Positions 21,326 through 44,515 of a stretch of 64,000 bases of DNA are shown here, piece by piece. The position numbers were made by a program, and so were the translations under genes. Where the stretch lies: positions 1 to 64,000 of IMG/VR virus record IMGVR_UViG_3300003324_000465; one strand, written 5' to 3'. Every line of letters starts with the position of its first letter. Position 1 is the first letter of the stretch. The DNA is from a virus. The notes beneath the pieces were generated by a model. It had not been told where the DNA came from. It searched no databases and saw only the letters and a list, made by a program, of their open reading frames with translations.

Positions 21326-21474
21326 ACGCAGTTATATTTCGTAATCTGATTAGTTATCTCATGGAACATGAGTATATTTATTTTACATTTCGCGATATAG
21401 TATTCAAACCTACTATGCAAGTAACCGAACTTACTGGTGCTATTGCTATAGAGTTAGTACAGTGTGGTGATTAA
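21322..21474 (+). CDS. small hypothetical protein (50 aa), paralog of 20862-21011
   Basis: GAAAGGA RBS; shares YIYFT..VFKPT. Confidence 0.6.
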   Translation: MNAVIFRNLISYLMEHEYIYFTFRDIVFKPTMQVTELTGAIAIELVQCGD

Positions 21475-21495
21475 ATAATCGCCCCGCATTATATA

Positions 21496-22260: not shown

Positions 22261-22289
22261 ACTATACATTACTTTTTTATAAATGTCAA
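22261..22289 (-). promoter_or_regulatory. sigma70 promoter for the HNH gene
   Basis: TTGACA-17 bp-TATAGT on the - strand. Confidence 0.7.
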
Positions 22290-22990: not shown

Positions 22991-23332
22991 ATATAAAAAG
23001 ACTTTACACTTAGGGGGATATATACATGGAGTCAAAACGTATAAACGGGTGATTGTAGTCACATGTGCATTTTTGGAGAGTGTAAAGTGTATAGTGCTTT
23101 GTAAGCATGATATGATGAGGTATTTCATAGGTGCGAATGGTGCCGCAGGGCACAACAAAGGCATAAAACCTTATTTAACCAAAACCTATAATTCAGACAA
23201 CAACGCTCACAGAGCATAAAACACAAAGAATTATGCTAGTGCATTCTAAGAGGATATTCTACATTGGTTATAGAGTATTTTTCACTAATAGATTCTGCAT
23301 GTATACATTGCGGGGCAATTATTCCGAGAACA

Positions 23333-23368
23333 AAGAAAAAACCCATCATTTATAGATAGGTCTTTCTC
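23333..23368 (-). terminator. intrinsic terminator ending the - strand arm
   Basis: ACCTATC-loop-GATGGGT followed by a T run on the - strand. Confidence 0.6.
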
Positions 23369-23771
23369 GTATATATTCCTTTTGTTATTAATAAAGCTTG
23401 ATTGATTGAATAACAATACCTTCCTTTAACATCACAAGTAACACTGTTTCTAGCACATTACATGTGATATACATTGTTTCCAGTCTACCAGATACGGCAT
23501 TAAGGTATTCTATTTCTACCATTATAGTATGCTCCTATGCGTATAAATTGCGGGCCATTATTACATTAGCTCAAAAGATCATCGGCTAATGCCCATGCGG
23601 TATCACAAGCTGCATTATCACTGCCGTTTATTGTAAACTCACTGCCGCCTATTCGCAATGTCAATTCATTTGCGCCGGTCTGGTACAGTTCAAAGTAAAA
23701 GCCCTTTATCTTGCGTGTACCTATATAAATCATTGTTATAACCTCTCTGTATATAATGCGCGGCTCTGTTA

Positions 23772-24002
23772 TTATAGATAGTTGTTTCTTGCCATTGTCA
23801 GTATAGTAATAAGCTGATCTATCTGCTGTACCGTAGTAATATCGATACGTTCCACAGACTCACCCGTAGGGGCATTATCATTCGGTACAGTCTGAATGAT
23901 GAACACACGATTCTTATCAATTACTACGTGCGTGCTATGTGGTTCTTCATTCAGATCATCGGTAAGATGAACACGAATAGCGGCTAATTGATTGCTTTTC
24001 AT
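23772..24002 (-). CDS. hypothetical early protein
   Basis: AGAAAGG RBS; flanked by junction motifs. Confidence 0.7.
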   Translation of the reverse strand: MKSNQLAAIRVHLTDDLNEEPHSTHVVIDKNRVFIIQTVPNDNAPTGESVERIDITTVQQIDQLITILTMARNNYL

Positions 24003-24052
24003 GGTATTAAACCTTTCTGTGATATATTGCGCGGCTATTATTCACGAGGATA

Positions 24053-24277
24053 TTATGCTGTATAATCCTCATACCATTGCTTATTCTCATACCATTGCAC
24101 GCTTGCACAGTTATTGCTATCACGCAGGAATTGACAAAACGTATCTGCGCTATCCTTTGCACTAAAATACTGGAAATAGTCCTGATGATCGGTAATGGAT
24201 GTCCAGAGCACACGGTACATATAACCGCAGTCACGTAGTGAGCTATCAATAGCTGGAGTAAGGTTGTCGATCAGCAT
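24053..24277 (-). CDS. hypothetical early protein
   Basis: AGAAAGGA RBS. Confidence 0.7.
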   Translation of the reverse strand: MLIDNLTPAIDSSLRDCGYMYRVLWTSITDHQDYFQYFSAKDSADTFCQFLRDSNNCASVQWYENKQWYEDYTA

Positions 24278-24580
24278 GGCAGCATCCTTTCTTATATGTC
24301 AAGTATGACAGGATTACCGTTATACATACCCACATTATAAAACGCGGGGCGATTATTAGCGCGGCTTGTGATAATCGATATGAATATTATAGAAAATATC
24401 AAATAACCGGGCCTCTTCTTCAACAGCCGCATCATAATCGGTATAATTACCGTTACGCAAGTTGCGTTGCGCAATAACCCATGCATTACGTGCGTCGTTC
24501 AGTTGATAGATTGTAGGGATCATTATATTCACCTTTCTGTATATACTGCGCGGCTATTATACACGCGCCCATCGCAGTTA

Positions 24581-24826
24581 TTAACTAATAAGGTCATTAA
24601 GCACGTTCAGAATGCTGGACAATTGCGTTTCTAGTCTATCAGTATCATACATGCTGATTGAAAGCATCCTGCCGTTGAACTGAAAAGCAAGCTGATTAAA
24701 ATGTGTGAACATAGTCATAGTCACGGTAATATCAGTGATGGTCATAGAGTGATACTGAAGAACACCAGAGCTATAAGCCTGATAGATCAGATTAGCGATT
24801 GTGTCTATAAATGTCTTCTGAAACAT
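24581..24826 (-). CDS. hypothetical early protein
   Basis: AGAAAGG RBS. Confidence 0.7.
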   Translation of the reverse strand: MFQKTFIDTIANLIYQAYSSGVLQYHSMTITDITVTMTMFTHFNQLAFQFNGRMLSISMYDTDRLETQLSSILNVLNDLIS

Positions 24827-25020
24827 GCTCGTCTACCTTTCTTTATTCAGTAACCTTGACGATCTGCCGACAATTGAATTTAATAATTGCGGTCATCTGT
24901 GCTGCAAGGCGATCAATATCCTTGATCTTCACTGTCTGGTGTGTATCGTCTGACTTCAGGAAAGTGATTGTATACGTCTTCATTGCCTGTACCTTTCGCT
25001 ATTGTTTTCCTCACAACCCT

Positions 25021-25074
25021 ATGATACCACAGGACTATATGGAATGCAATATCGAAACCGTGTAGATTCTAAGG
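25021..25074 (-). promoter_or_regulatory. early promoter with conserved upstream box
   Basis: TTGCAT-17-TATCAT (TGG extension) preceded by AGAATCTACACGGTTTCGATA. Confidence 0.75.
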
Positions 25075-25108
25075 AATATTTTAAGGAATATTTTTGAGGA
25101 TAAAATTA

Positions 25109-25210
25109 TAGGAGACATTCTAAGACGTTGAAAATATCAAAACGACCTGAGATACTGGTTTGATACTATCGTGTCTTAGAATGTCTCCTAGGGGTATTGT
25201 AGGGCATTCT
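25109..25210 (-). repeat. tripartite element with a perfect 18-bp inverted repeat
   Basis: TAGGAGACATTCTAAGAC (25109-25126) / GTCTTAGAATGTCTCCTA (25173-25190) plus AGAATGCCCTACAA. Confidence 0.85.
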
Positions 25211-25214
25211 GTGA

Positions 25215-25520
25215 TTATTGATCAGGGAAGAGTGTAGTATATCTGGTAAGCATGTCAAGCATACGCTTATAGGTAGTACCTGAAACCTTTGTAAGCAAGG
25301 TAGCGCAATAGCATTGAATACCATGGGGGGTCATTACAAAGGTATCCTCATCGTTGTTATACACAATAACGCCATTGTACAAAAATGCGGCAAGAGTCTT
25401 ATAGTCGATATGTTCTGAGAGTGTGGTAAAATTGGTTATTCCGTTTGTAAGTATATGCTCAATCGCATTCATTTGAGCATAGCTGAAGTCACTGTGTACG
25501 AATTTAAGTGCTTTAGCCAT
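25215..25520 (-). CDS. hypothetical (wHTH-like) protein, paralog of 33413-33709
   Basis: shared AQxxAIExIL..DxxTLxAF..TxxGIQxYCATxLTK. Confidence 0.75.
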   Translation of the reverse strand: MAKALKFVHSDFSYAQMNAIEHILTNGITNFTTLSEHIDYKTLAAFLYNGVIVYNNDEDTFVMTPHGIQCYCATLLTKVSGTTYKRMLDMLTRYTTLFPDQ

Positions 25521-25765
25521 AACAGGTATCCTTTCTTACGAGTAATAATTGGCGGGGCATTATTTATGAATCACAAACATTGTTAAACCATGTTCATCAA
25601 ACATAGGCGTCATAGTGATAATATCAGTAAATGAAACCGTCGAAGATAGTTTAAACAGCGCTATAGCAAGCATCTCCTCATATCCTCTAGTACCGTTGCA
25701 AGGTACAAAGATACGCTTAACATTATCCATATACATATATCCTTTCTTATATAGTGCGCGCCGGA

Positions 25766-25963
25766 TTATACACGGCGACCTTTAATTATATATCTTCCAG
25801 TACCGTCACGCTTTACATATGGTATATCCCGTAATGCTCGTGAGATTTGAGAAGGCTTGTATGTTTCGAGCGCAACATCCATGGCGGTCATTACATCCAT
25901 AACGTTAAACCATCTGTTTCCCGGAATGGATTCCAATGCTTTCTTTACTGCTTGCTTGATCAT
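25766..25963 (-). CDS. small hypothetical (HTH-like) protein
   Basis: GAAAGGGG RBS before MIKQAV; KPSQISRAL. Confidence 0.6.
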   Translation of the reverse strand: MIKQAVKKALESIPGNRWFNVMDVMTAMDVALETYKPSQISRALRDIPYVKRDGTGRYIIKGRRV

Positions 25964-26005
25964 TGTGTTTTCCCCTTTCATTCAAAATATCAGAAATAAT
26001 CCGTA

Positions 26006-26338
26006 CTAAAGCACCACTTTCGGGTATTCAAGATTATTATCTGTAACATACTGATTGATACCGTCAATCCATCCACGCAACCAATCATGATGATATTGTG
26101 TCGATAAACGAGCATACTCTTTAACGTCTGGTTTATCATTCTTACCTGAATTAAAAACATATGGCCCGCCAGGGATATAACCACCAATTACAGATGGATG
26201 CTTAAAATTGCTTCCTCTTGTTAACCATATATATCCATCATTATATCCATCATCATATCCCTGTTCATTGATCACAGATGGATTAGGATCAAGGATATGA
26301 GGAAAACTTTCTTTTGCATTCATGCTATTTACTCCCAT
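26006..26338 (-). CDS. hypothetical protein
   Basis: GYDDGYNDGY repeat; tightly packed. Confidence 0.65.
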   Translation of the reverse strand: MGVNSMNAKESFPHILDPNPSVINEQGYDDGYNDGYIWLTRGSNFKHPSVIGGYIPGGPYVFNSGKNDKPDVKEYARLSTQYHHDWLRGWIDGINQYVTDNNLEYPKVVL

Positions 26339-26565
26339 GTTACATCATCGGCTATACTACCATCATATTTTGGTAATGCTATACCATGGTGTGCTAATGT
26401 TTGTTCTAATTGTTTAATCCTTTCACGATATATCTGATGGTCTTGCCACAGAAGATCGGCTACTTGCTTATAATATTTCTCCTTCCAGGATTTAGATAAT
26501 ATCCAAAAATCCATACCACCAAAACGATTACGCAAGAATGCGGCTATTGTTTCTTTATCCATGAT
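26329..26565 (-). CDS. hypothetical protein
   Basis: AAGGA RBS; start approximate (near MDKETIAAF). Confidence 0.55.
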   Translation of the reverse strand: MMDKETIAAFLRNRFGGMDFWILSKSWKEKYYKQVADLLWQDHQIYRERIKQLEQTLAHHGIALPKYDGSIADDVTWE

Positions 26566-26595
26566 ACATTGATCCTTATATATAATGCCGGGCAA

Positions 26596-27126
26596 TTATT
26601 CATAGATAATGTGGCTATCCAATACGCGATACAGTTCATCTCTGCCGGGCTTCATGTGGTTAAGCTCTAAAGAAAGCTTGACAGCACTTACAAGCTCATC
26701 GGCTCGGCCTACTGTTTCCGTAATATCTTCACTGGTTGTCACTACTGCTATTACTGCATAGAGATTGTTATCATGTAGTACGTAGTCAAGCCGCTTGACA
26801 AAAGCTTCCATATTACTATCGTCACTAGGGATAATGACAATTTCATCTCCTCCCCATCTGATAACTGTATCGGTATGCCGAAAATTGTCTACAAAAGAGC
26901 AAATGAGCTTGTCTACACCATCCATTGTAAAAGCATGATTCGCCGCGTGCATATTTGCAATATCGATTTGAACAAGCTTATGATCTGAGCAAATCGGCTT
27001 GCTCGCAACAGCATTACGATTCAAGATACCGCCAAAAGCTTGATCACATTCAAGATACCCTATCCGTTTCTGCTGCTCCATAACGAGTGCAATCAGTTCT
27101 TCGCGGCTCATATCTTGAATGTTCAT
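26596..27126 (-). CDS. GGDEF (diguanylate cyclase)-like domain protein, divergent
   Basis: DQAFGGILNR, IDIANMHAAN, VIRWGGDEIVII and RADE; N-terminal coiled coil. Confidence 0.75.
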   Translation of the reverse strand: MNIQDMSREELIALVMEQQKRIGYLECDQAFGGILNRNAVASKPICSDHKLVQIDIANMHAANHAFTMDGVDKLICSFVDNFRHTDTVIRWGGDEIVIIPSDDSNMEAFVKRLDYVLHDNNLYAVIAVVTTSEDITETVGRADELVSAVKLSLELNHMKPGRDELYRVLDSHIIYE

Positions 27127-27165
27127 TGTAGTATCCTGTATTGTCTAAGCGGCTTCGTTGAATGG

Positions 27166-27195
27166 AGTATAGCATGGGAGCATAGGCTAGTACAA
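27166..27195 (-). promoter_or_regulatory. possible promoter for the GGDEF gene
   Basis: TTGTAC-18-TATACT with TG extension. Confidence 0.5.
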
Positions 27196-27253
27196 TGGTA
27201 TCATGGTCCTATATGAAATTAGTACCTAATCACTATGAAAATAATTGCACCAA

Positions 27254-27502
27254 TTATGCGTAGCTCTGAACCGTATAGCCCTTATCTTTCAAAGCATCTG
27301 CGAGATCATTAATACTGTGAAGACGGCTAAAATTATGTACGTATACCTCAGCATGCGTAGGAAACATACACATCAGATTAACCGCATCCTCTAGCGCTTG
27401 TGCTGTAACATTCCATGACCGTTCATCATTCACATAGCATGTGATCTGAGCATATCCACTACTGGTACTGCGGATAATGAGCTGAAATTTACCAGTAATC
27501 AT
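27254..27502 (-). CDS. hypothetical protein
   Basis: AGAAAGGA RBS before MITGKF. Confidence 0.65.
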   Translation of the reverse strand: MITGKFQLIIRSTSSGYAQITCYVNDERSWNVTAQALEDAVNLMCMFPTHAEVYVHNFSRLHSINDLADALKDKGYTVQSYA

Positions 27503-27533
27503 GGGAATATCCTTTCTGATAGCCATATCATTA

Positions 27534-27749
27534 TTACAAATAGCCGATGAATGTAACAGTGCTGTATGTGCCATTTGTATACTCTACGCATTGAAACATC
27601 TTTTTACCTTTTGGCCGGACAAGAGTAAGATCACGAGTAACATTGTTTTCACGCATAACTCTTGCCATATTGATCAAGCCATCTGATTCTAACTGATCTG
27701 GTGTTTTTGCGCTAATGATTTGATATTCGATATTGTCTATGGTAATCAT
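27534..27749 (-). CDS. hypothetical protein
   Basis: AGGAG RBS. Confidence 0.7.
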   Translation of the reverse strand: MITIDNIEYQIISAKTPDQLESDGLINMARVMRENNVTRDLTLVRPKGKKMFQCVEYTNGTYSTVTFIGYL

Positions 27750-27783
27750 GTTATGTGTCTCCTGATATTACTGCGGCGCATTA

Positions 27784-28029
27784 TTAGTAATCGTTAGCGT
27801 ATATGTCAATATCACGCAAAATGCTATCGGATACGCCATCCTCCATAATTGTAGGATCAATTACAAATGTAATCTCATCTCGCATATATCCCCAAGTCAT
27901 AACCTGCTTAATATAACTAGCGGTGTCTTGCCAAACGTTCTTTAGCATTGTTGTATCGACAACATTACCGTCGTGTCGAGCTTTGGCGTAGTAGCTACCG
28001 TTTACTTGGAAGAATTTAACCTCTAGCAT
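27784..28029 (-). CDS. hypothetical protein
   Basis: GAAAGG RBS, first gene after a promoter. Confidence 0.7.
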   Translation of the reverse strand: MLEVKFFQVNGSYYAKARHDGNVVDTTMLKNVWQDTASYIKQVMTWGYMRDEITFVIDPTIMEDGVSDSILRDIDIYANDY

Positions 28030-28066
28030 TGTCTTCAGCCTTTCAGATTGTTTGCCTCACACCAGA

Positions 28067-28120
28067 ATGATACCATGATCTATGGCCAGAGTCAATACTG
28101 AAACCGTGTAGTTTTTAAGG
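28067..28120 (-). promoter_or_regulatory. early promoter with conserved upstream box
   Basis: TTGACT-17-TATCAT (TGG extension); upstream CTACACGGTTTCAGTA. Confidence 0.8.
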
Positions 28121-28154
28121 AATATTTCGGGGATTATTTTTTTTTAGGATTGTA

Positions 28155-28256
28155 CAGGAGCCATTTTAAGAGGCGATAATTTTCAAAATGACGTGAGATA
28201 CCAGTTTGATCCTATCATCGCTCTCAGAGCTTCCCAGGGGCCTTACAGGGCATCCT
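28155..28256 (-). repeat. tripartite element copy
   Basis: AGGATGCCCTGTAAGG + GGAAGCTCTGAGAGCG ... CCTCTTAAAATGGCTCCTG on the - strand. Confidence 0.75.
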
Positions 28257-28274
28257 AAGAAATAGCTGTCATGT

Positions 28275-28306
28275 AAAAAGAGTCTAGGGTTTAGTCCTAG
28301 ACTCTC
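28275..28306 (-). terminator. intrinsic terminator after the helicase
   Basis: AGAGTCTAGG-loop-CCTAGACTCT followed by a T run. Confidence 0.85.
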
Positions 28307-28326
28307 TGGTGCTTTATACTGGTACG

Positions 28327-29946
28327 TTAATCCACTAATACCAAATGGCTTTTGGCTCTGGTAATGCCCACATAATGCACATGTTTTTCCTGGGCTATCT
28401 GTTCTTCTAACCGCATTGGCAATTCAACACGGCTATAGTCAAAGATGAAGACCTTATCGGCTTCGTTACCCTTGACTCGATGAATAGTTGATAGCTGTAC
28501 TGCGTTCTTCTCATTCGTATCACTGAAGAGTGTAGTAATCTTGGCCCTAAGCTCTGTCAAATCCTCCATTCCCTCTGTAAGAGCAATAAGAGTATCGATC
28601 TTATCGTTTAATGCTTGCCGCGCATTATCTGCCTTCTTACCACGAGCTTCTAACTTTTCAAGCTCCTTATTGCGGTATTTCTCTGCTTTATCAATCAATT
28701 CAGGAATATCTTGAGCCTTGAGTTTCTTAATAAGGGCTAACATACCTTTGCCAAAATCGCGCCCTTTTACAAAGACTGGTACACCAGCACGCATAAGACC
28801 GTATGCTACGCTAATAAGGGGAGCGGTACGACGGCAAATACCCATATCACCGGGTTTAATAGATTCAATAGCTTTGTTAAGCCCCATTGATTCTACAATA
28901 CCGATAGGAGCATCATCCATTGCACGAATATGCGGTACAATTTGTTGTGCTCTGTCAATAATCGCTACTGCGCAACGTCTGCTCACTGTTAAGGGTAATG
29001 ACTCGACACCGCGATTAGTTGTACTCAAGTATGTATTAAAGTCTCGCATGCTATTTGTATTGGCACCAGCAAAACCATAAATACTTTGATACTCGTCGCC
29101 TACACCAAAAAAACGACCAGTCTTACCTAAAGCGAGTATTGCAATATATTGCTGTAGTTTATTAAAATCCTGTAGCTCATCTGCGATTACAACGTCAAAT
29201 GTTTCTATCGCTATCTTGTGAGTGTACACAAAATAGAGCATATCAGTGAAATCGACCACATTTCGGCTATTTACACTCGCTTTGATAACTTGCGGGACAA
29301 TTGTATACACCATGCTACGATGATCATTCAGATCAATACCATATGTATCCACAATGGAATCTAGCTCTTGCTCGTCTTTACCTTCAAACAAGTTATATTT
29401 GCAAAGCTCTACAATCCTTCGTGTAGCTGCTTTGATGTAATCACTGTTGTCATCTTCAGGCACAAAGCCGTCAATGATACCGTCAAGTTTATTCTCATCT
29501 AGTGTAACACGAGGATTCCAGCGCTTTACTTGCTGAAAGCTAAAGCTGTGCATGGTCTTAACCATGATCTCTTGAGGTAAACGCTGTTCTAGTTCTTTAA
29601 CAATATGCGTGTTAAACGCTACAAAAAGCTGCTTTACTGCTTTCTGTTGCTGCATAAGCATAGAACCGTGAACGATCGTGAATGTTTTCCCGCATCCCGC
29701 ACCAGCTTTAACAATTAAATGTTTATTGCTTTGCAGCATAGTATTCCAGATTGCTTCTTGCTCTGGTGATCCTTGCACACTAGTGTTTAGCGTAATTGAG
29801 CTACGATCAGCTTTAGGAGCTTTAAATGGCTTATAACCATTGCACTTTGGGAAACCAGAACATCCGTAGAATTGAAAGTCTGTACCCTTCTTCGTGCGGA
29901 GTACCATGGGCTTATTGCATTTGGGGCATGTTTCTGTAGCGGTCAT
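28327..29946 (-). CDS. SF1 (UvrD/Rep-like) helicase with N-terminal topoisomerase-type C4 zinc ribbon
   Basis: CPKCxxxMVLR..FYGCSGFPKC; AGAGCGKT, DELQD, GDEYQSIYGF, STIHRVKG and YVGITRA. Confidence 0.92.
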   Translation of the reverse strand: MTATETCPKCNKPMVLRTKKGTDFQFYGCSGFPKCNGYKPFKAPKADRSSITLNTSVQGSPEQEAIWNTMLQSNKHLIVKAGAGCGKTFTIVHGSMLMQQQKAVKQLFVAFNTHIVKELEQRLPQEIMVKTMHSFSFQQVKRWNPRVTLDENKLDGIIDGFVPEDDNSDYIKAATRRIVELCKYNLFEGKDEQELDSIVDTYGIDLNDHRSMVYTIVPQVIKASVNSRNVVDFTDMLYFVYTHKIAIETFDVVIADELQDFNKLQQYIAILALGKTGRFFGVGDEYQSIYGFAGANTNSMRDFNTYLSTTNRGVESLPLTVSRRCAVAIIDRAQQIVPHIRAMDDAPIGIVESMGLNKAIESIKPGDMGICRRTAPLISVAYGLMRAGVPVFVKGRDFGKGMLALIKKLKAQDIPELIDKAEKYRNKELEKLEARGKKADNARQALNDKIDTLIALTEGMEDLTELRAKITTLFSDTNEKNAVQLSTIHRVKGNEADKVFIFDYSRVELPMRLEEQIAQEKHVHYVGITRAKSHLVLVD

Positions 29947-30207
29947 CGTTGTGTATCCTTCTGTATTACAAAGAAGACGTAAGTAGATCCTACCGATACA
30001 TCATAGATACATCATGTTGATCATCCGTTAGTTCAAACATTGCTGTAGTATTAATGTTACCCCAAAGAAGGTAAAAACCTTCTGGATGATCAATCGGCAG
30101 CATATCAGTAATCCATGTGTCTACAATATCATGCTTGTGCATATCTATTTTGTAAATAATGTACATGGTTTTATGCCCTTTCCTTGTAAGATTGTTTCAT
30201 TGCCTCT

Positions 30208-30262
30208 ATGATACCATGACCGTTCCGGCAATGTCAATATCGAAAGCGTGTAGATTCTAGGG
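30208..30262 (-). promoter_or_regulatory. early promoter with conserved upstream box
   Basis: TTGACA-18-TATCAT; upstream CCTAGAATCTACACGCTTTCGATA. Confidence 0.8.
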
Positions 30263-30265
30263 AGT

Positions 30266-30505
30266 TTATTTAATGCCTAGAATCTGCTTTTGATTGTTAG
30301 GGATAAAGACACGGCGGCATCCATCTGGCAATTGATAGCGGGTGTCATGGCCGATGCTATCTTTGAAAAATACCTGTACATACCATTGATCGCGCCAATT
30401 GCAAACCCGACCGCCTAGGAAACCTTCTTGCATTGCTAATGCATTAAAAATGCTATTTGCATCTTCTTCAGAATAGATCGTATCGAATAATTGAATAGCA
30501 TTCAT
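30266..30505 (-). CDS. hypothetical protein
   Basis: AAAAGG RBS. Confidence 0.65.
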   Translation of the reverse strand: MNAIQLFDTIYSEEDANSIFNALAMQEGFLGGRVCNWRDQWYVQVFFKDSIGHDTRYQLPDGCRRVFIPNNQKQILGIK

Positions 30506-30509
30506 GATT

Positions 30510-30791
30510 TTAGCCTTTCTCGTTTAGCAAGTAACGCAATCCTTCGTAAGCTATGCTGTTCTTTATCGGTAATTCACCATTTGGCCCAATGAATTTATAT
30601 TGTAATATAAATCTATATATTTCCTCTGATTGTTCATCATTCCAATAATTTAATATTTCCCTACAGTATATATCGATAGCACCATCTTTACGACGGTTTA
30701 TAATATATTTCGATCTATGTATATTTTGCTTCGCCGCTATTTTTACTGTTTCGTATTGTTCCTTTGTTAAACCTATCAGTAGACTATACAT
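30510..30791 (-). CDS. hypothetical protein
   Basis: AAAGGA RBS. Confidence 0.65.
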   Translation of the reverse strand: MYSLLIGLTKEQYETVKIAAKQNIHRSKYIINRRKDGAIDIYCREILNYWNDEQSEEIYRFILQYKFIGPNGELPIKNSIAYEGLRYLLNEKG

Positions 30792-30822
30792 ATGAGCTAT
30801 CCTTTATGTAGACTATTACATT

Positions 30823-31077
30823 TTAGTATGCTTCATCTGGATTGATAAGCCAAGTAGCATAATTGGTTAAAGGAGCGCCTAGTTTATATACGCTACCGCT
30901 CTTTGTTGTTATTGTTTGTATATCCTTGTTATATGCTACTATAACAGAAGTAGTAATACGGTTATCATATCCTTCTACACATCCTGTAAGATGTAATTGA
31001 CATCCTTTCTCCAAATCTTCAATATGTGCATATTCCCAGAAAGGATTAATTATTGTGTATTGATCGCATGTTTTCAT
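30823..31077 (-). CDS. conserved phage hypothetical protein
   Basis: ITTS..TKSGSVYKLG pattern. Confidence 0.65.
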   Translation of the reverse strand: MKTCDQYTIINPFWEYAHIEDLEKGCQLHLTGCVEGYDNRITTSVIVAYNKDIQTITTKSGSVYKLGAPLTNYATWLINPDEAY

Positions 31078-31400
31078 GGTTTTACTCCTAATCTTCTAGC
31101 TGTTTCTTTCCGTATAGATTTACGGGCAAATTGCATTCTACGATCATATTCATCCTTGTCAGCTATAGTATCTGCGGCGAATGTTTCATGGTCTCCATTG
31201 ACGGCAATTGACCGCAGCGAACTATCCTCGCATATCTGATGTTGAACTGTACCAATCTCCGTTGTAATTGTCCAATAAAAAGAACGACTTGTTACCGTAG
31301 CATTATATATTGATATATTGCGCCGCGTTTTGTATTTACGAATGAATGTGCTTAGACGATAGACTAGAACGGCTATTATAAGTATAGCCCACATGCTCAT
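31074..31400 (-). CDS. hypothetical protein with N-terminal TM
   Basis: AGGAG RBS, hydrophobic N-terminus. Confidence 0.65.
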   Translation of the reverse strand: MSMWAILIIAVLVYRLSTFIRKYKTRRNISIYNATVTSRSFYWTITTEIGTVQHQICEDSSLRSIAVNGDHETFAADTIADKDEYDRRMQFARKSIRKETARRLGVKP

Positions 31401-31411
31401 AATTATTACTC

Positions 31412-31777
31412 CTATACGAATCGCATCTGAATTGACGTTCGGTAAGCTATCCTTTGCTGAATAACCTTATAGTCTATTCCTTTTGTCTCACACCAGAGAA
31501 ATAAGGGAGTATGTTTCTTTGAGGAATTACAACCGTTGCAAACGGTAACGAGATTGTGAGGATTTTTGATAGCCTTGCGGAAATCTTTTATATCAGGATA
31601 TTCCTGTGCAAGCTCATGTTGTGGAATAATATGGTCAAGCGTAATTACATCTAGCGGATTTTGCTTCCATACCTCTTTTGTGTATCGCTTGCCTACTTTG
31701 CCGCAATAGCAGCAAGTATCAGCATCACGATCATAAAGGTTTTTGCGCTGCTTTGGGCTTATCCATCCGCTAGGCAT
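31412..31777 (-). CDS. HNH endonuclease
   Basis: YDRD..CCYCG, TLDHIIP, NLVTVCNGCNSSK; start at MPSGW, after the promoter. Confidence 0.88.
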   Translation of the reverse strand: MPSGWISPKQRKNLYDRDADTCCYCGKVGKRYTKEVWKQNPLDVITLDHIIPQHELAQEYPDIKDFRKAIKNPHNLVTVCNGCNSSKKHTPLFLWCETKGIDYKVIQQRIAYRTSIQMRFV

Positions 31778-31821
31778 GTTCGTAATCCTCTGTACTGGTA
31801 TGTTGCGGTTCCGTTGTGAGG

Positions 31822-31850
31822 ATAGTACCATGAAAAAAGATAAGAGTCAA
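31822..31850 (-). promoter_or_regulatory. sigma70 promoter
   Basis: TTGACT-17-TACTAT with TGG extension. Confidence 0.7.
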
Positions 31851-31882
31851 GAGGTTTTAAGACCAATTTTAGAGGAATTTTT

Positions 31883-31925
31883 TGTACCCTGTATTACGAA
31901 TAGTCAATATTAAATACAGGGTACA
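31883..31925. repeat. 13-bp perfect inverted repeat (hairpin or operator)
   Basis: TGTACCCTGTATT / AATACAGGGTACA. Confidence 0.75.
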
Positions 31926-31933
31926 TAACGCGC

Positions 31934-32218
31934 CTACCATTCAATATCAAAACCTGCGGCGCTAAACAACGTTTCTCTCACCTGCGTCCATGTTTCAGAA
32001 GACAGATCACGATTGTACCCACGAATGTCGTTTTTCTTGTCATAGACAAAGATTCGAGTCTCTTTCTGAAGATCGACTCGCTTGTCTGTAACAATGTAAT
32101 GATACCTGCTGCCCTTTTCTTCGATCTGCCATCCGAAAACATATATAACATCTTTCTGTCCAGTTTGAGGATTGGGCATGATCATACCCACTGAACCGTA
32201 GCGCAATTTGCCTTCCAT
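31934..32218 (-). CDS. hypothetical early protein
   Basis: GAAAGGA RBS after a promoter. Confidence 0.7.
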   Translation of the reverse strand: MEGKLRYGSVGMIMPNPQTGQKDVIYVFGWQIEEKGSRYHYIVTDKRVDLQKETRIFVYDKKNDIRGYNRDLSSETWTQVRETLFSAAGFDIEW

Positions 32219-32257
32219 TGTGGTATCCTTTCGGTATTGTGTTCGGCTACTGAAACA

Positions 32258-32310
32258 AGGATACCATGCTCCCAGAGCAATGTCAATATCGAAAGCGTGT
32301 AGATTCTAGG
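32258..32310 (-). promoter_or_regulatory. early promoter with conserved upstream box
   Basis: TTGACA-17-TATCCT; upstream box identical to the 30208 copy. Confidence 0.8.
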
Positions 32311-32614
32311 CAAATTTCAAAGGGCACCATACGGACTCTGTTTAACCTGAACCTATAGATCATAGTATTCTCTTGTCGGATATGATCAATGCCATGAATA
32401 TACCCGGCGTATTATTATACCGCGTTTTGTTTTCATTTTCCTAGTACCTTTTGAATATCATACAAAGAACGCTCCCGTACTAGTAATCGCTCTCTATAAT
32501 AATCAGGATGGCTTAATCTACGATGATAGTAGAACCTAGCATATTTATATTTTAATGCGAGTTTCTTTCCTCGTTTCGTCTTCATAGTATCCCCCATGAA
32601 TAAATTGCGCGCAG

Positions 32615-32815
32615 TTATTTCTTAATGCTCCATGTACGATTCCAGATACGGGTAATTGGATTCCATAGATACGTCTCATTAGGATTCGTAGAATAAAAGT
32701 CTACCGCACGAATGGCCCCATGACCATATCCTGCTAAAGTGAATGCATGCCCGATTGTATTACCTTTGATTGTTTGTTTTGTTCCATCCTTCCAGTAGAG
32801 GATATATGTGTTCAT
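32615..32815 (-). CDS. hypothetical protein
   Basis: AAGGAG RBS. Confidence 0.7.
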   Translation of the reverse strand: MNTYILYWKDGTKQTIKGNTIGHAFTLAGYGHGAIRAVDFYSTNPNETYLWNPITRIWNRTWSIKK

Positions 32816-32978
32816 CTTATACTCCTTGTGTATTGGATAGGAATCTCATAAAATCCGCTACCATCGTCAAAACGTACAATGACAGTAAAAATACGATTGT
32901 TCATACAACCTACTGCTCTACTAGGTTCAGCTAGACCGATCTTACCTCTCATCGCTCCTTCTATAATGATTACTTTCA

Positions 32979-33398
32979 TTATTCTATACTCTTTGTATTC
33001 TTACATAATGGATATGCAGCACATCCTAAAAATTCACCAAACTTGCCTTTTCGTAGTTTCATAGGATTACCACAACGATCACACCATGTTATACCATCAC
33101 TCCAATTATCAATGCGCGCATTTAATCGTATCTGCCAATTATGTGATCGATTAATCCTTTTTTCACCGCTAATAAAATCACCACGACTATCAACAATCAC
33201 AATACGTATAGCATCAGCGCCAATATCTCTACTTTTACCATTACGCTTATCAATACTCGTATAAATACGAATATGACATGTATCTATTACTTTCTCATAG
33301 ACATGTTCACCTATAGGTAGATCAATACGTTTAAATCCACGTACGAGCAATACATCATTCATGTCTTGCAGTGTAATAACTTCGTATTGTGATGCCAT
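32979..33398 (-). CDS. hypothetical protein with C-terminal topoisomerase-type C4 zinc ribbon
   Basis: CDRCGNPMKLRKGKFGEFLGCAAYPLC. Confidence 0.8.
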   Translation of the reverse strand: MASQYEVITLQDMNDVLLVRGFKRIDLPIGEHVYEKVIDTCHIRIYTSIDKRNGKSRDIGADAIRIVIVDSRGDFISGEKRINRSHNWQIRLNARIDNWSDGITWCDRCGNPMKLRKGKFGEFLGCAAYPLCKNTKSIE

Positions 33399-33412
33399 AG
33401 CAATCTACCTTT

Positions 33413-33709
33413 CTATGAATTAAATAAACGCTGGTAATTCGTTAGTGCTGCATGAATGCGTTCATGTGTAGGACCATCATACTTAGTGAGAATAGTAGCA
33501 CAATACGATTGAATACCGTAATGTGTCAGTGTGTATATTCCACACTCATTATCAAATGATACGATGCTGTTACGAATAAATGCACCTAGTGTACGATTGT
33601 CAGCGAATAAAAACATTGTTTCTTTTACTTCTATTGCGGTATTCCGATGATCCAATATCCTCTCAATAGCTTCTACTTGAGCATTGCTTAAATTCATATT
33701 CACTGACAT
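33413..33709 (-). CDS. hypothetical (wHTH-like) protein, paralog of 25215-25520
   Basis: visible pairwise similarity. Confidence 0.75.
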   Translation of the reverse strand: MSVNMNLSNAQVEAIERILDHRNTAIEVKETMFLFADNRTLGAFIRNSIVSFDNECGIYTLTHYGIQSYCATILTKYDGPTHERIHAALTNYQRLFNS

Positions 33710-33724
33710 GATGCCTACTCCTAT

Positions 33725-34117
33725 TTATTGGTTATACCAGAGGATAACCTCATCTCCATACAGAATATAGGCGCGGCCTATATTATCAACCGCAAGGGTG
33801 AAATGGTTGATACGCTTCTTATGTTGTCTACGGTATTCACGAATAAAATCAAGAATAACTATGCCAATTGTGTAATCCAGTGCTTTTGTGAAAATACGCA
33901 TAGCAAAATTATTATCAGACCTATCACCGGACTCGGTATCTTTCATATACTGTACTGATTGATCATCCTTCAGATACAGCCATGAAATATCCTGAGCGCT
34001 CAAGGGCTTTCCTGAATCGTATGCCTCTTTCATCTTTGCATAGAGCGCATTCGTGTCTACTTCCCATGACGTTACCTTGATCTGTTTGCCAGCATAGGTG
34101 ATAGTTTGCTTTTTCAT
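33725..34117 (-). CDS. hypothetical protein
   Basis: AGGAG RBS. Confidence 0.7.
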   Translation of the reverse strand: MKKQTITYAGKQIKVTSWEVDTNALYAKMKEAYDSGKPLSAQDISWLYLKDDQSVQYMKDTESGDRSDNNFAMRIFTKALDYTIGIVILDFIREYRRQHKKRINHFTLAVDNIGRAYILYGDEVILWYNQ

Positions 34118-34146
34118 GTCTTTACTCCTGATACTATGCGCGGCTA

Positions 34147-34326
34147 TTATTCAATTACAGTAATTGTGTATCCTTCTGTGATTTCATGACATGACACATA
34201 TTCCCACGTATAATCAGTATTCTGATCCGCAATTTCTTGCGCTTTCTCAATTGTGGTGGTAATTATATATTGCATCGCAATGCCGTATGAATCGCCTGAA
34301 AATTCAAAGATATAGAGCTTGCTCAT
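34147..34326 (-). CDS. small hypothetical protein
   Basis: GAAAGGA RBS before MSKLYIF; similar to 36747-36938. Confidence 0.6.
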   Translation of the reverse strand: MSKLYIFEFSGDSYGIAMQYIITTTIEKAQEIADQNTDYTWEYVSCHEITEGYTITVIE

Positions 34327-34365
34327 AAAGGTAAATCCTTTCATAACTTGTCCGACTCTGCGAGA

Positions 34366-34409
34366 ATAATACCATGAGCTAAAACAGAAGTCAATATCTA
34401 AACCGTGTA
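34366..34409 (-). promoter_or_regulatory. early promoter with upstream box
   Basis: TTGACT-17-TATTAT; upstream TACACGGTTTAGATA. Confidence 0.75.
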
Positions 34410-34503
34410 ATATAACGTGTAAATTTAAGAAGATTTTAGAGGATACTGGTATTTATTACTCGCGCCAGTATAACGCTTTGTACTTATAATTGCGGGCAAT
34501 TTA

Positions 34504-34806
34504 TTACTTGCTGCGTGTTAGCTCATTTCGATGGGCACCGCAATAAACATCAAACATGTTAATAGGCGAGCGGATAATGCAAGCGCATTTTTTACTGCGG
34601 TACGTATGTATAACCCGCTTGTCATCCGCATCAGGTTGCCGTGTAACCGAAGTCACTGTCGGCTGAACCCCAAGATTTTTTTTATTCTTGCTACCCTTCG
34701 GTCTGCCCCTACCACGCTTTGGCTCTGTCTCCGCTGCTGCGGCGATAGTCTTTTTATTTAGAGAACCTTTAGGACGACCACGGCCCCGTTTAATTGTGCT
34801 TTCCAT
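34504..34806 (-). CDS. double AT-hook DNA-binding protein
   Basis: KRGRGRPKGSxNKK twice; GAAAGG RBS before MESTIK. Confidence 0.8.
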   Translation of the reverse strand: MESTIKRGRGRPKGSLNKKTIAAAAETEPKRGRGRPKGSKNKKNLGVQPTVTSVTRQPDADDKRVIHTYRSKKCACIIRSPINMFDVYCGAHRNELTRSK

Positions 34807-34843
34807 TGTCGTGTACCTTTCGTTATAGTGCTTACTTGCACTG

Positions 34844-34871
34844 ACTATACCACGAGATTCGATATTGTCAA
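34844..34871 (-). promoter_or_regulatory. sigma70 promoter for the AT-hook gene
   Basis: TTGACA-16-TATAGT with TGG extension. Confidence 0.65.
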
Positions 34872-34882
34872 GAGGGAATTTT

Positions 34883-35452
34883 CTACCAATGTGAGCGGAA
34901 ATAAACAATATCGCGGAGAATAAGTGTACCATCTTCTGATACGGCTAGATTGTGTGTAGGAAACTCAAAGAGAAAATTACTATCAAAAGCTGTAGTCCAA
35001 GTATAAATATTGCGTAATGCTTCTATAATCGAGTCTGGTACATTACCATCCTGTTCTAATTTTTCGATAAAATTGTATACTACCTGATATAACAGATCGT
35101 ATCTGTTCCTAATCATATGCAAGCTAATTTCACCACGAAAAAAACCCCATGTTTCTTGAAGCACTTTAGCTACGCGCCATGCCTCTTTGTGCTTTGCCGT
35201 AAGCTTATCAGTAAATTTTGTCTTATAACACACATAGTCCCTACCACGAATAGATATGTCATCACACGTTTCCATGTACGGCACATGCTTAGATTTAATG
35301 TGGCTGTAGATTTCCTTTGTATGCTGATTCGCATGCTCATAAACGTCATAGGGTGTAATCAGGAATACTACAGAAGGATCATCTGTTGATCGATAGGCGA
35401 TGGAAAATTCGCCTTGTCCAATTTTCTTGACATTGTGCCCATGGATCATCAT
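34883..35452 (-). CDS. protein-kinase-like fold protein
   Basis: Gly loop KIGQGEFSIAY; catalytic-loop-like FEFPTHNL; DGTLILRD. Confidence 0.55.
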   Translation of the reverse strand: MMIHGHNVKKIGQGEFSIAYRSTDDPSVVFLITPYDVYEHANQHTKEIYSHIKSKHVPYMETCDDISIRGRDYVCYKTKFTDKLTAKHKEAWRVAKVLQETWGFFRGEISLHMIRNRYDLLYQVVYNFIEKLEQDGNVPDSIIEALRNIYTWTTAFDSNFLFEFPTHNLAVSEDGTLILRDIVYFRSHW

Positions 35453-35499
35453 GGTCGTGTTTCCTTCTGTGTACTGTGTTGCTTGTCTGCTATGGTAAC

Positions 35500-35527
35500 A
35501 GCATATCACGGTTTTTGAGGATGTCAA
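35500..35527 (-). promoter_or_regulatory. sigma70 promoter
   Basis: TTGACA-16-TATGCT with TG extension. Confidence 0.65.
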
Positions 35528-35700
35528 TACCCGAATCTCATATGAGTATCAAATTGGTCATTTTTAGGCATATCAAAGCCATAAAATCAAAATTGCACAC
35601 GCATGGTATATATCTACCATTGATTCAAGGTTTACATCTCAGCGTATATGCATGTATTAAAGGGCTTCTAGCAATTCCTATAAGCGGCTTTTGTAATTTC

Positions 35701-35795
35701 ACAAAATGCTCTATAAGGCCCATAGGAAGCTTACAGAGGCATTGTAATATCAATCTGGTATAAGAGTAGGGGTGATTCGCTGTAGAGGTTCCTAT
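35701..35795 (+). repeat. tripartite element copy, opposite to local transcription
   Basis: AAAATGCTCTATAAGG + ATAGGAAGCTTACAG ... CTGTAGAGGTTCCTAT. Confidence 0.65.
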
Positions 35796-35823
35796 TAAAT
35801 AATAGCTATTATTTTAAGGCTTT

Positions 35824-36177
35824 CTAATGCTTTGAATCATAATGATATTTAGGAGTATTTTTGAGGATAAGACATTGACAATCTATGTCATATTCATATT
35901 CAGCATGCTCGTTATATCTGCGTGTATGGGATTCTTGCAATTTCTTATATTCTTTATATGCGGCTAATTCATTTGCAATAATGGGTTGCCATTTACTATT
36001 CACTTCTGCTATGAGTTCTAATAGATGCGCCCAATTATTAAGCATGTGATAAAAGACCATAGCAAGATCAACGAGTTCTAACAATTGCCAGTCTTGTTTC
36101 TCGTGTGCTAATTCTACCATATGTTCACTAAGTTGAATAAAATTCCGACGATTGTATAGCAATGTATCATACTTCAT
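35824..36177 (-). CDS. hypothetical protein
   Basis: AGAAAGGA RBS. Confidence 0.65.
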   Translation of the reverse strand: MKYDTLLYNRRNFIQLSEHMVELAHEKQDWQLLELVDLAMVFYHMLNNWAHLLELIAEVNSKWQPIIANELAAYKEYKKLQESHTRRYNEHAEYEYDIDCQCLILKNTPKYHYDSKH

Positions 36178-36258
36178 TAGTATATCCTTTCTATGTGGAA
36201 AATTCGCGTTTTGAAATTCATTTTATAAAACTAGACTCTCCAGATTTTATTGTACCCC

Positions 36259-36501
36259 TTATGATAATAATGCGAGACACAATTCAGTCATGAGCGGCTT
36301 ATCTAGCTTTCCTTTACGCCATTCATAATAAAGCTCTTCATTATTAGGCAATTCACGAACTAGTCTGTATGCTGCGATACAGTCATCCCATATCCATGGA
36401 ATACCATTACGTTTATAGTAATCAAATTTTTCTTCTTGTCGTGTACACTTAGAAACATACATATCAGCCATTTCAAGTAGCTCTATAATATATTCATACA
36501 T
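36259..36501 (-). CDS. hypothetical protein
   Basis: AAAGGA RBS before MYEYII. Confidence 0.6.
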   Translation of the reverse strand: MYEYIIELLEMADMYVSKCTRQEEKFDYYKRNGIPWIWDDCIAAYRLVRELPNNEELYYEWRKGKLDKPLMTELCLALLS

Positions 36502-36746
36502 AACGTATTCCTTTTGTAATAAGTGCGCGCATTTTATTAAAGATCGATCCATGTACCATCAATGTATTCTTGCATCTGTACATTTGTATTATCTGGTAAT
36601 AGTATATGCTCTATTAACATACCTACATATGTTTTAAAATACACAGTTAACGCACTATAATGAAATCTATACTTATATCCAGTTTGCAAAGCTAATTGTT
36701 CTGTAATAATCATTGTATTTTCTCCTATAATAATGCGCGGCGATTA

Positions 36747-36938
36747 TTATCTAGTAGTATTAAAAACATATCCATTGATAATTGTCTCGCCATTACGGTC
36801 TCTCAAGTACCATGGTCCATCTGATTGCTCATCTGCAATAGCTTGAGCATTACTTGGATCATCCGCTATAATAAGCATACAATCATAAACACGATCACAA
36901 GCATCACTCCAAAATGTGTAAATGCGTAAATTATCCAT
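36747..36938 (-). CDS. small hypothetical protein
   Basis: GAAGGA RBS; bounded by junction motifs. Confidence 0.65.
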   Translation of the reverse strand: MDNLRIYTFWSDACDRVYDCMLIIADDPSNAQAIADEQSDGPWYLRDRNGETIINGYVFNTTR

Positions 36939-37141
36939 AGTATTTTCCTTCTATAATAATCGCGGGCGATTTATCAGTAATAACGATAAGCTGTCTGACT
37001 ATTAAGCTCATACCATGTAAACCACGCATAACCCATAGTATAGGCTAATGAAAAACGCTTATGTTTTGTTGCAATATCCTTACCACTACTGTACCAAATA
37101 TCTTTCATGTGTTTATATCCTTTAAAATGCGTGCATTTTTA

Positions 37142-37408
37142 TTAATACCAAGTACTAGGCTTAGTAGATAAAGCAAAACTGTCAAAAACATTCTTATCTA
37201 TAAGGTCAATCAATTCCTTTGTAAGATCAAATACATTCTCACCAGCGTAAGGAATACGGTATGTGTATGATATTACTGCGTTGATGTCTATCGATCCATC
37301 TACAATACTTTTTGGTGTAAATATTACGCGCCCGGTAATAAAATTCCAAGAGATAGACATACTGGTGTATTCGATTGTAACGTATGTATCGTTATTATTC
37401 TTATTCAT
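37142..37408 (-). CDS. hypothetical protein
   Basis: AGGAG RBS. Confidence 0.65.
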   Translation of the reverse strand: MNKNNNDTYVTIEYTSMSISWNFITGRVIFTPKSIVDGSIDINAVISYTYRIPYAGENVFDLTKELIDLIDKNVFDSFALSTKPSTWY

Positions 37409-37446
37409 GATGATATAATCTCCTATAATGCCCCGCGAATTATATA

Positions 37447-38868: not shown

Positions 38869-38901
38869 GTGCTTTGTCCTTTATGTATCTTGTCTGTATG
38901 C

Positions 38902-38929
38902 ACTATATCATGTTTTTTGTAAGAGTCAA
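38902..38929 (-). promoter_or_regulatory. sigma70 promoter
   Basis: TTGACT-16-TATAGT with TG extension. Confidence 0.65.
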
Positions 38930-43325: not shown

Positions 43326-43586
43326 TCAACTATCTGTATTATCATCTATCCTTTCAAACGACAACCATTGTCCAGCCGCAAATGCTATTATAATTCCCTT
43401 ATCATCATTAAAACTAAGTATACCATTATCACGAATAAATCCACTATATGCAAATATAGTAATTGTTGTTACTACCGGGCCAATATTTGCATCATATGGT
43501 TTGTATAACGGCATACTTTGATATTCCGGCGCAACATTCGCTACGTCCTCTTGATTTACACGTACTAAGACATCATATCTATTCAT
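43326..43586 (-). CDS. hypothetical protein
   Basis: AAAGGA RBS, overlaps the MTase end. Confidence 0.6.
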   Translation of the reverse strand: MNRYDVLVRVNQEDVANVAPEYQSMPLYKPYDANIGPVVTTITIFAYSGFIRDNGILSFNDDKGIIIAFAAGQWLSFERIDDNTDS

Positions 43587-44310: not shown

Positions 44311-44515
44311 TTAATTATCCTTTTTATAATAATGCGCGGGCAATTATTCCATGTTACGAATATACCATAGATCAAACATTGCCATAAGAACAATGCTTGC
44401 GTATGACACATCTGTTGAAGGCTTCATTATTGCTGCTATACTAAAAATAATAACGTTCGCTATAAACAGTAATATAAATTGACTGAAGATACGCGAGTTA
44501 TGTTCTTCTATTAGT

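Follow-up and report, generated by a model that had tools for sequence, protein, structure and literature searches.

Genome and Element

The virus record IMGVR_UViG_3300003324_000465 of the IMG/VR collection comprises 106,876 bp at 35% G+C, and its first 64 kb, i.e., positions 1 to 64,000, are the stretch analyzed here and referred to as the window. Genes run rightward from 1 to 21.5 kb, leftward from 21.5 to 80.7 kb and rightward from there to the end of the record. A family-A DNA polymerase, a DnaB-like helicase, a zinc-finger DnaG-type primase, a RecA-like protein and a ribonucleotide reductase are encoded, besides a terminase, a portal, an FtsK/SpoIIIE-like ATPase, at least three HNH or endonuclease VII-type genes, a PD-(D/E)XK gene and 27 tRNA genes. 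Scattered over this genome is a short DNA element consisting of a pure G/C block between two A/T arms, which the first-pass annotation had described as a gene-junction motif, ATAAT-N-(G/C)6-9-N-ATTAT. All 23 intergenic cores and all four in-gene copies listed there could be recovered, with A/T at 10 to 12 of the 12 flanking bases.

The motif is real and under selection. Writing A/T as W and G/C as S, the pattern W5-S7..9-W5 is found 43 times in the window, compared to 1.5 copies expected from a first-order W/S chain, and 65 times in the whole genome, compared to 2.4 expected from the same model, corresponding to an enrichment of about 27-fold. Resolved by core length and requiring five A/T on each side, enrichment is twofold for 6, 21-fold for 7, 37-fold for 8 and 36-fold for 9 G/C pairs, while cores of 10 or more are absent. 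Uninterrupted G/C runs as such are also in excess (94, 47 and 12 runs of 7, 8 and 9 genome-wide, compared to about 40, 15 and 5 in the first-order model), and none is longer. Among the 153 runs of 7–9, 113 are flanked by at least 10 A/T out of 12 bases, in contrast to 15% of random positions. These flanks reach about 88% A/T over 6–7 positions at a background of 65%, and beyond that the background level is resumed.

Altogether, about 175 sites by a loose and 92 by a strict definition are spread throughout the genome, corresponding to approximately one per 600 bp. Their spacing is near random (coefficient of variation 0.86 versus 1.0 ± 0.07, largest gap 3.5 kb), and an even spacing was hence rejected. 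Among about 170 loci of other phages, some of them at 30–32% G+C, none has more than three copies of W5-S7..9-W5, and Pseudanabaena phage PA-SR01 has a single copy and lacks the signature; accordingly, AT-richness of a phage genome does not in general bring the motif with it. Owing to this contrast, the pattern could serve to flag relatives of the lineage in metagenomes. No Rfam family matches at the motif sites.

Anatomy of the Motif

The element is laid out as 7–8 A/T pairs, 7–9 pure G/C pairs and again 7–8 A/T pairs, with a peak of arm length at 7–8. Most of the information resides in the G/C-only core at about 1.5 bits per position, compared to 0.2–0.7 bits in the arms. Core words are diverse and rich in CG and GC steps, the most frequent ones being GCGCGC (25 copies), GCCGCGC (11) and CGCGGGC (10). 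The core tends to open with G and to close with C, usually as GC at both ends, and is preceded by T and followed by A in about 70% of sites, so that flexible steps, T|G and C|A, mark the block edges. With A prevailing in the left arm and T in the right one, the element reads alike on both strands.

Arm letters are weakly conserved. Their best form is AATAAT-N8/9-ATTATT, and ATAAT is preceded by A in 61% and by T in 24% of arms, favoring AATAAT rather than TATAAT. Exact ATAAT directly abuts 8-bp cores and lies one base off 7-bp cores, thus placing ATAAT...ATTAT pairs 8–9 bp apart. The ATAAT/ATTAT arms claimed at first are indeed found as an exact pair at this spacing in about 20 sites; elsewhere, however, the arms are loose A/T runs of 7–8, and the exact-arm patterns tried catch just 0–4 of the 175 sites. 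The signal is set by base-pair strength together with a length ruler and is two-fold symmetric.

One explanation for such a pattern would be a functionless by-product of mutation or repair bias, for example one tied to the four DNA methyltransferases of the phage. A similar origin has been proposed for the highly iterated palindromes of cyanobacteria. The methyltransferase genes are located at 5711–6373, 7845–8477, 8470–9192 and 43579–44310 (one PHROG methyltransferase, one MT-A70 and two N6_N4 types), and tetranucleotide usage is distorted, with GCGC and CGCG over-represented (1.56 times the expectation) and GGCC and CCGG depleted (0.50 and 0.78 times). Nevertheless, a repair bias yields one fixed word and not a strength pattern with a ruler of 7–9 and extra-A/T-rich flanks, nor does it account for the ten-fold excess of placement in short junctions described below, making this origin the most improbable of the explanations considered. 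Restriction-site logic for the motif was likewise rejected, as the depletion is limited to GGCC and CCGG.

Copies Within Genes

Genes were called with a simple script combining open reading frames and ribosome-binding sites, and a few small genes are missed or spurious; the copies at 23310 and 24029, for instance, were scored as lying in coding sequence by such an error. On this basis, 127 of the 175 loose sites fall within called genes, distributed over the three frames as 49/40/38 and present across all gene classes. In genes of at least 100 aa, 100 sites are found, compared to 29 ± 5 when synonymous codons are shuffled within each gene and 22 ± 4.5 when codon order is shuffled. For the strict sites, the corresponding numbers are 52 and, after synonymous-codon shuffling, 5.5 ± 1.9. 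Hence, the in-gene copies, which had been regarded as weaker, are not weaker at all. Their cores employ the G/C-only codons that otherwise make up 16–20% of Gly, Ala, Arg and Pro codons. In the UvrD-like helicase gene, the core GGG-CGC-G coincides with the codons of G395, R396 and D397, of which G395 and R396 are invariant in 23 homologues. The motif is thus not inserted but written onto existing protein sequence via codon choice. In line with this, insertion of a mobile mini-element was rejected, since with cores of 7 and 8 the reading frame would be lost, and since invariant residues are encoded by one of the cores. Examples of in-gene copies are as follows.

28751–28771, minus strand: in-gene copy in the UvrD-like helicase, rare codons
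12275–12296, plus strand: in-gene copy in the RNA ligase gene, core 12282–12289, exact ATAAT...ATTAT arms
54410–54430, minus strand: copy at the 3′ end of the primase gene, core 54417–54423; the DnaB-like helicase starts 54 nt on

When scored with matrices derived from junction copies, the deep in-gene sites show no orientation preference (60:52). This bears on the suggestion that the motif is a programmed single-strand nick site in virion DNA, as in T5-like phages, cut by a phage HNH enzyme at the A/T–G/C edge. Nicks in T5 are reported to begin with pGCGC. Enzymes are available in the form of the HNH and endonuclease VII-type genes mentioned above, and GajA exemplifies a nicking enzyme reading AT wings and a GC core (PMC8136825). 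However, at a symmetric site both strands would be nicked and the DNA would break, T5 nicks are confined to one strand (PMC10644984) while the motif is without strand bias, and the GajA consensus occurs at chance level in the window (14 versus 11.9). A nick site is consequently very unlikely.

A signal for the replisome, namely a preferred start of lagging-strand priming or a pause site, would make use of the symmetry, which would serve forks of either direction; the G/C block would template a stable primer of 7–9 nt beginning with GC and slow the helicase. In favor of this, sites occur roughly evenly at about one per 600 bp, without frame or strand preference and selected in all gene classes, the block reads ...GC|A on both strands, and the phage encodes its own zinc-finger DnaG-type primase and DnaB-type helicase. 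On the other hand, known primases read trinucleotides without A/T arms, the spacing is, as given above, close to random with gaps of up to 3.5 kb, and a ten-fold excess at short junctions would not be expected. On balance, a role at the fork appears unlikely.

Copies at Gene Junctions

The bias toward intergenic positions noted at first sight is borne out for short junctions. Same-strand gaps of 25–49 nt contain 13 sites in 978 nt (13 of 28 gaps occupied), equivalent to 13.3 sites per kb, in contrast to 1.4 per kb in coding sequence and 1.8 per kb in gaps of at least 80 nt; at the coding rate, 1.4 sites would be expected in these 978 nt. That the motif punctuates the small-gene region is correct regarding this junction density, whereas the motif is distributed genome-wide and most copies lie inside genes. 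The intergenic copies are located as follows.

1131–1150, plus strand: copy 28 nt past tRNA-Lys, core 1138–1143
1756–1776, plus strand: copy 33 nt before the ATG of 1803–2165, core 1763–1769
13128–13148, plus strand: intergenic copy, core 13135–13141
21473–21494, no strand assigned: core 21480–21487, preceded by the final stop codon of the rightward arm and followed by a bidirectional terminator hairpin
23303–23323, no strand assigned: core GCGGGGC at 23310–23316, just beyond the terminator closing the leftward early unit
23543–23563, minus strand: junction copy, core 23550–23556, 27 nt before the ATG of 23388–23522
23751–23771, minus strand: junction copy, core 23758–23764, 24 nt before the ATG of 23566–23733
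24022–24042, minus strand: junction copy, core 24029–24035, 26 nt before the ATG of 23772–24002
24336–24372, minus strand: two neighboring copies, cores 24343–24351 and 24359–24365
24541–24561, minus strand: junction copy, core 24548–24554, 24 nt before the ATG of 24356–24523; resembles the junction 23729–23765
25544–25565, minus strand: junction copy, core 25551–25558, 30 nt before the ATG of 25215–25520
25749–25771, minus strand: junction copy, core 25756–25764, 19 nt before the ATG of 25560–25736
26580–26600, minus strand: junction copy, core 26587–26593, 24 nt before the ATG of 26329–26562
27766–27786, minus strand: junction copy, core 27773–27779, 23 nt before the ATG of 27534–27749
32600–32619, minus strand: intergenic copy, core 32607–32612
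34131–34151, minus strand: junction copy, core 34138–34144, 20 nt before the ATG of 33725–34117
34454–34504, minus strand: two copies, cores 34461–34466 and 34492–34497, upstream of a canonical early promoter
36518–36537, minus strand: junction copy, core 36525–36530, 23 nt before an ATG
36728–36749, minus strand: junction copy, core 36735–36742, exact AATAAT...ATTATT arms, 21 nt before an ATG
36954–36975, minus strand: junction copy, core 36961–36968, 22 nt before an ATG
37423–37444, minus strand: junction copy, core 37430–37437, 21 nt before an ATG
44327–44348, minus strand: junction copy, core 44334–44341; a DNA methylase gene starts 23 nt on
49640–49660, minus strand: core 49647–49653; a small gene lying upstream of the RecA-like gene begins 36 nt on

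In gaps of 25–49 nt, the stop codon lies 1–9 nt ahead of the core and the end of the core 19–30 nt from the ATG, with the core directly preceding a strong AGAAAGG or AGGAG ribosome-binding site. Altogether, about 25 start codons have a copy 19–36 nt upstream, and the tRNA-Pro, tRNA-Ala, tRNA-Leu and tRNA-Phe genes have copies 8, 11, 30 and 34 nt upstream, respectively. Junction cores end in C in 80% of cases, and the next base is A in 80%. Where the converging units end, the copies at 21480 and 23310 adjoin terminators and are not followed by a gene. Over 37 nt, the two junctions at 23729–23765 and 24519–24555, each spanning the motif, a ribosome-binding site and the first codons, share 84% identity, and the 55-aa proteins encoded downstream of them do not show any mutual similarity.

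Such junctions could be crossover points for cassette shuffling, where recombination swaps, inserts or deletes single small genes in the manner of the promoter early stem-loop (PeSL) elements of T4-type phages. Supporting this, about half of the junctions of 25–49 nt consist of stop codon, motif and ribosome-binding site, the common 37-nt junction just mentioned precedes unrelated genes, the genes flanked by the motif are ORFans, and RecA-like, PD-(D/E)XK and endonuclease VII genes are present. Yet the junctions have only a very short stretch in common, core sequences differ, the selected in-gene copies are left unexplained, and neither stem-loop nor −35 promoter is found, both of which are present in PeSLs (PMC4122927). 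Taken together, cassette crossover is quite improbable.

Relation to Promoters

The position ahead of start codons and tRNA genes would also suit a promoter core lacking a −35 box, in which one arm is the −10-like box, the G/C block a long discriminator and transcription starts at the C|A step 8–9 bp on. Such a promoter would need a phage factor or strong negative supercoiling, and its symmetry could let firing go both ways. Besides the distances to about 25 start codons and four tRNA genes and the prevalence of C followed by A at the core end, the spacing ATAAT-N8-A is in line with this reading, as it equals the layout of the rrnB P1 promoter (TATAAT, 8 nt, A). The supercoiling sensitivity of a promoter is set by the G/C content of its discriminator, and such sensitivity would be expected from a G/C block (PMC8422995). 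The sole copy with its arm AATAAT 18 bp downstream of a perfect TTGACA is the one at 27766–27786.

Several findings argue against it, however. A −35 box matching at least 4 of 6 positions is present in 3 of 25 junction copies, corresponding to chance, and promoter-like sites between 21 and 38.5 kb amount to 79, compared to 80 ± 8 in shuffles. In 8 of 17 copies, TG stands immediately next to the hexamer and lacks the intervening base of the canonical promoters of the phage (TGn rule), and the preference for A over T before ATAAT indicates that the arm is not an optimized −10 box. Moreover, the second arm, which a promoter would not require, is conserved as well as the first. About 110 selected deep in-gene copies remain unexplained, the copies at 21480 and 23310 are located beside terminators where transcription units end, the divergent promoter region near 80.7 kb contains no copy at all, and neither a sigma factor nor a phage RNA polymerase was found. 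A promoter core without −35 box is thus conceivable but doubtful.

The canonical early promoters form a distinct family, TTGAC(A/T)-N14-15-(C/T)ATGG-TATANT on the minus strand, which carries no G/C block.

22261–22289, 25231–25258, 28067–28095, 30208–30237 and 31822–31850, minus strand: canonical early promoters
32258–32286, 34366–34394, 34844–34871 and 38900–38929, minus strand: further members of the family

Membership of the motif in this promoter class was rejected, as its −35 matches do not exceed chance and the TGn rule is not obeyed. In several of the early promoters, a conserved box of about 25 bp (…TACACGGTTTCGATA) abuts the −35 element, with four copies at 25047, 28093, 30235 and 32284. 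The TRTG-like extended −10 region and the strong ribosome-binding sites suggest a host of the Bacillota type, as far as can be judged from the sequence.

Folding and Polarity

An mRNA processing hairpin, also considered initially, is not supported by the fold obtained. The motif with 9 nt on either side folds to a mean of −1.35 kcal/mol at the 92 strict sites, compared to −0.97 kcal/mol in W/S-preserving shuffles, and pairing of the arms is at 0.44 versus 0.39 expected from composition. An RNA or DNA hairpin, including an intrinsic terminator, was therefore rejected. At 24548–24570 and 48658–48676, pairs of G/C blocks lie 10–12 nt apart and could form five G–C pairs (GCGCG...CGCGC and GCCGG...CCGGC); these are the sole places where G/C blocks might build a real stem.

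Regarding orientation, the core had been described as C-rich on the coding strand and hence as polar. This holds for most intergenic cores within the window, at 1–38 kb, but is reversed in the tRNA island at 88–107 kb. Between 21.5 and 38 kb, 12 of the 15 unequal intergenic cores are G-rich on the plus strand, opposite to the local background skew, whereas in the tRNA island 12 of 15 intergenic cores are G-rich on the coding strand. Within genes, the cores just track the G excess of the coding strand. Consequently, core polarity in intergenic copies follows neither transcription nor one genome axis, and there is no genome-wide polar signal. An orienting signal similar to the FtsK orienting polar sequences (KOPS) had to be dismissed as well, as cores vary, the element is two-fold symmetric and the word families are found on either strand of every arm.

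A Proposed Landing Site for a Symmetric Protein

Among the functions initially proposed, a protein-binding site fares best, as the element is symmetric and selected inside genes, although no reader protein was found. Our preferred, still tentative reading is that the motif is the landing site of a symmetric protein recognizing DNA shape and flexibility. As the information mostly amounts to whether a base pair is G/C or not, combined with a length ruler, the reader would sense duplex stability or groove shape and flexibility, and the two-fold symmetry, from which not even junction copies depart, speaks for a reader that is itself symmetric and acts on duplex DNA. This reader, whose presence and effect we infer, would probably be a dimeric DNA-binding protein encoded by phage or host, engaging two bendable A/T arms, with TpA, T|G and C|A steps, held 8–9 bp apart by a stiff G/C block. 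GajA provides a precedent for a single protein recognizing AT wings together with a GC core (PMC8136825). In the gaps between stop codon and ribosome-binding site or just ahead of tRNA genes, the bound protein might gate transcription gene by gene, while the in-gene copies might keep the same protein spaced along the whole chromosome.

Several points weigh against this reading. Neither an HU/IHF-type protein nor sigma region 2 or an OLD-family nuclease was detected in the genome, and twenty small early proteins are ORFans without Pfam match. A rigid dimer would not usually accept G/C pairs in any order and at three core lengths. Inside late genes, a bound protein would be a costly roadblock, and the in-gene copies would need a benign role. 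Finally, the roughly ten-fold junction density suits a promoter or cassette boundary at least equally well.

In a further reading, the signal may reside in base-pair strength and not in letters, with a stiff 7–9-bp G/C block between A/T hinges being read mechanically by melting or bending; rare codons would keep copies every few hundred bp in essential genes, and the signal would double as per-gene punctuation in the early small-gene region. This we regard as possible, albeit less probable than a landing site as such. If true, a mechanically read strength signal would represent a new class of phage chromosome signal. The motif prevails over codon choice even where core enzymes have invariant residues, and its reader would reveal either an undescribed one-by-one control of many small early genes or a chromosome-wide process such as priming, compaction or capture of RNA polymerase.

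Genome Ends and Relatives

The first and last 25 bp of the record are identical, suggesting a circular or permuted assembly. If the ends are joined, the tRNA island spans the junction, reaching from 88.5–105.3 kb onward to 1.0–4.5 kb. Two glycosyltransferase genes are found at 13847–14521 and 57232–58449.

At the DNA level, the region from 23 to 30.9 kb does not give any match to GenBank phages. The DNA polymerase shows at most 29% identity to phage sequences, and a search of viral contigs with this protein gave no match. A polymerase match was obtained in GenBank entry CAKLQH020000014.1 (locus L178), filed as 'Acinetobacter phage MD-2021a'; the matching stretch, however, bears polA, rho, pheST and infC and looks like a bacterial chromosome and not like a phage. 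The UvrD/PcrA-like helicase (28327–29946) has an N-terminal zinc ribbon of the topoisomerase-I type, and a separate 139-aa protein (32979–33398) ends in the same zinc ribbon. Uncultivated relatives of this helicase family are encoded on contigs of 100–110 kb, the closest one being 79% identical (protein P0002 on a 107.7-kb contig). In a scan of viral and metagenome contigs for this family with generic Walker-motif patterns, relatives did not exceed 35% identity among the matches listed. The exact 16-mer ATAATTCGCGGGCAAT gave four chance matches in viral contigs, none with the motif signature, and single-protein scans with P0005 and P0006 did not result in a usable relative.

Comparison With Known Systems

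In several respects, the motif resembles the stoperators of cluster A mycobacteriophages, where the monomeric repressor of a temperate phage binds a fixed, asymmetric and transcription-oriented word of 13–14 bp (PMC9283540, PMC6550527). In both cases, dozens of short sites on duplex DNA are found, many in short gaps by start and stop codons and some in genes, and the occupation of 13 of the 28 gaps of 25–49 nt corresponds to the stoperator placement. In contrast to stoperators, the motif is symmetric and strength-coded with variable cores and a 60:52 orientation, about three times denser and mostly located inside genes. Neither a repressor nor an integrase is among the roughly 90 proteins scanned, many small ORFans lacking an assignment.

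PeSLs combine a stem-loop terminator and a full early promoter at small-gene junctions of T4-type phages (PMC2839356, PMC4122927). As there, short conserved junctions common to unrelated genes flank small ORFans in a variable early region; unlike PeSLs, the motif shows neither a stem-loop (−1.35 kcal/mol) nor a −35 box, and it mostly lies inside genes. The Gabija nuclease GajA recognizes AATAACCCGGTTATT, a near-palindrome in which AT wings (AATAA/TTATT) enclose a fixed 5-bp CCCGG core; wings and core are read by a single protein, with some degeneracy allowed (PMC8136825). The arrangement of AT wings around a G/C core is shared, but the motif core has 7–9 bp in any G/C order and is enriched, whereas a phage should avoid the GajA site. 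An identity with the GajA/OLD nuclease site (TNNNCGGGNNA or AATAACCCGGTTATT) was rejected, as 14 matches in the window compare to 11.9 ± 3.7 expected, and OLD TOPRIM and AAA_15 domains are absent from the genome.

Promoters with a G/C-rich discriminator, such as E. coli rrnB P1, share with the motif a −10-like A/T box, about 8 G/C-rich bp and the C|A start step, but differ from it in that the motif has neither −35 nor UP element, prefers AATAAT over TATAAT, is symmetric and is selected in genes in both directions. The KOPS, SRS and TRS sites of FtsK-family pumps are likewise G/C-rich blocks of about 8 bp over-represented along a replicon, and the phage encodes an FtsK/SpoIIIE-like protein; those sites, however, are fixed and strongly polar, while motif cores vary without genome-wide polarity. 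HIP1-like repeats are a single fixed palindromic word, spread genome-wide and tied to a methyltransferase; the motif is spread through genes genome-wide and has no fixed word, though GCGCGC is its commonest core.

Benders of the HU/IHF/TF1 type and dimer operators with an N8 spacer, such as the LexA box, bring flexible A/T segments about 9 bp apart that are read by shape. The bendable A/T arms of the motif, 8–9 bp apart, appear analogous to this arrangement, though no protein of the HU/IHF/TF1 type is encoded by the phage and a pure G/C spacer is not a known requirement of such sites. To our knowledge, the dispersed phage signals described so far (promoters, stoperators, Chi, KOPS and PeSLs) are fixed words; the motif differs from all of these by A/T versus G/C strength combined with a sharp length ruler.

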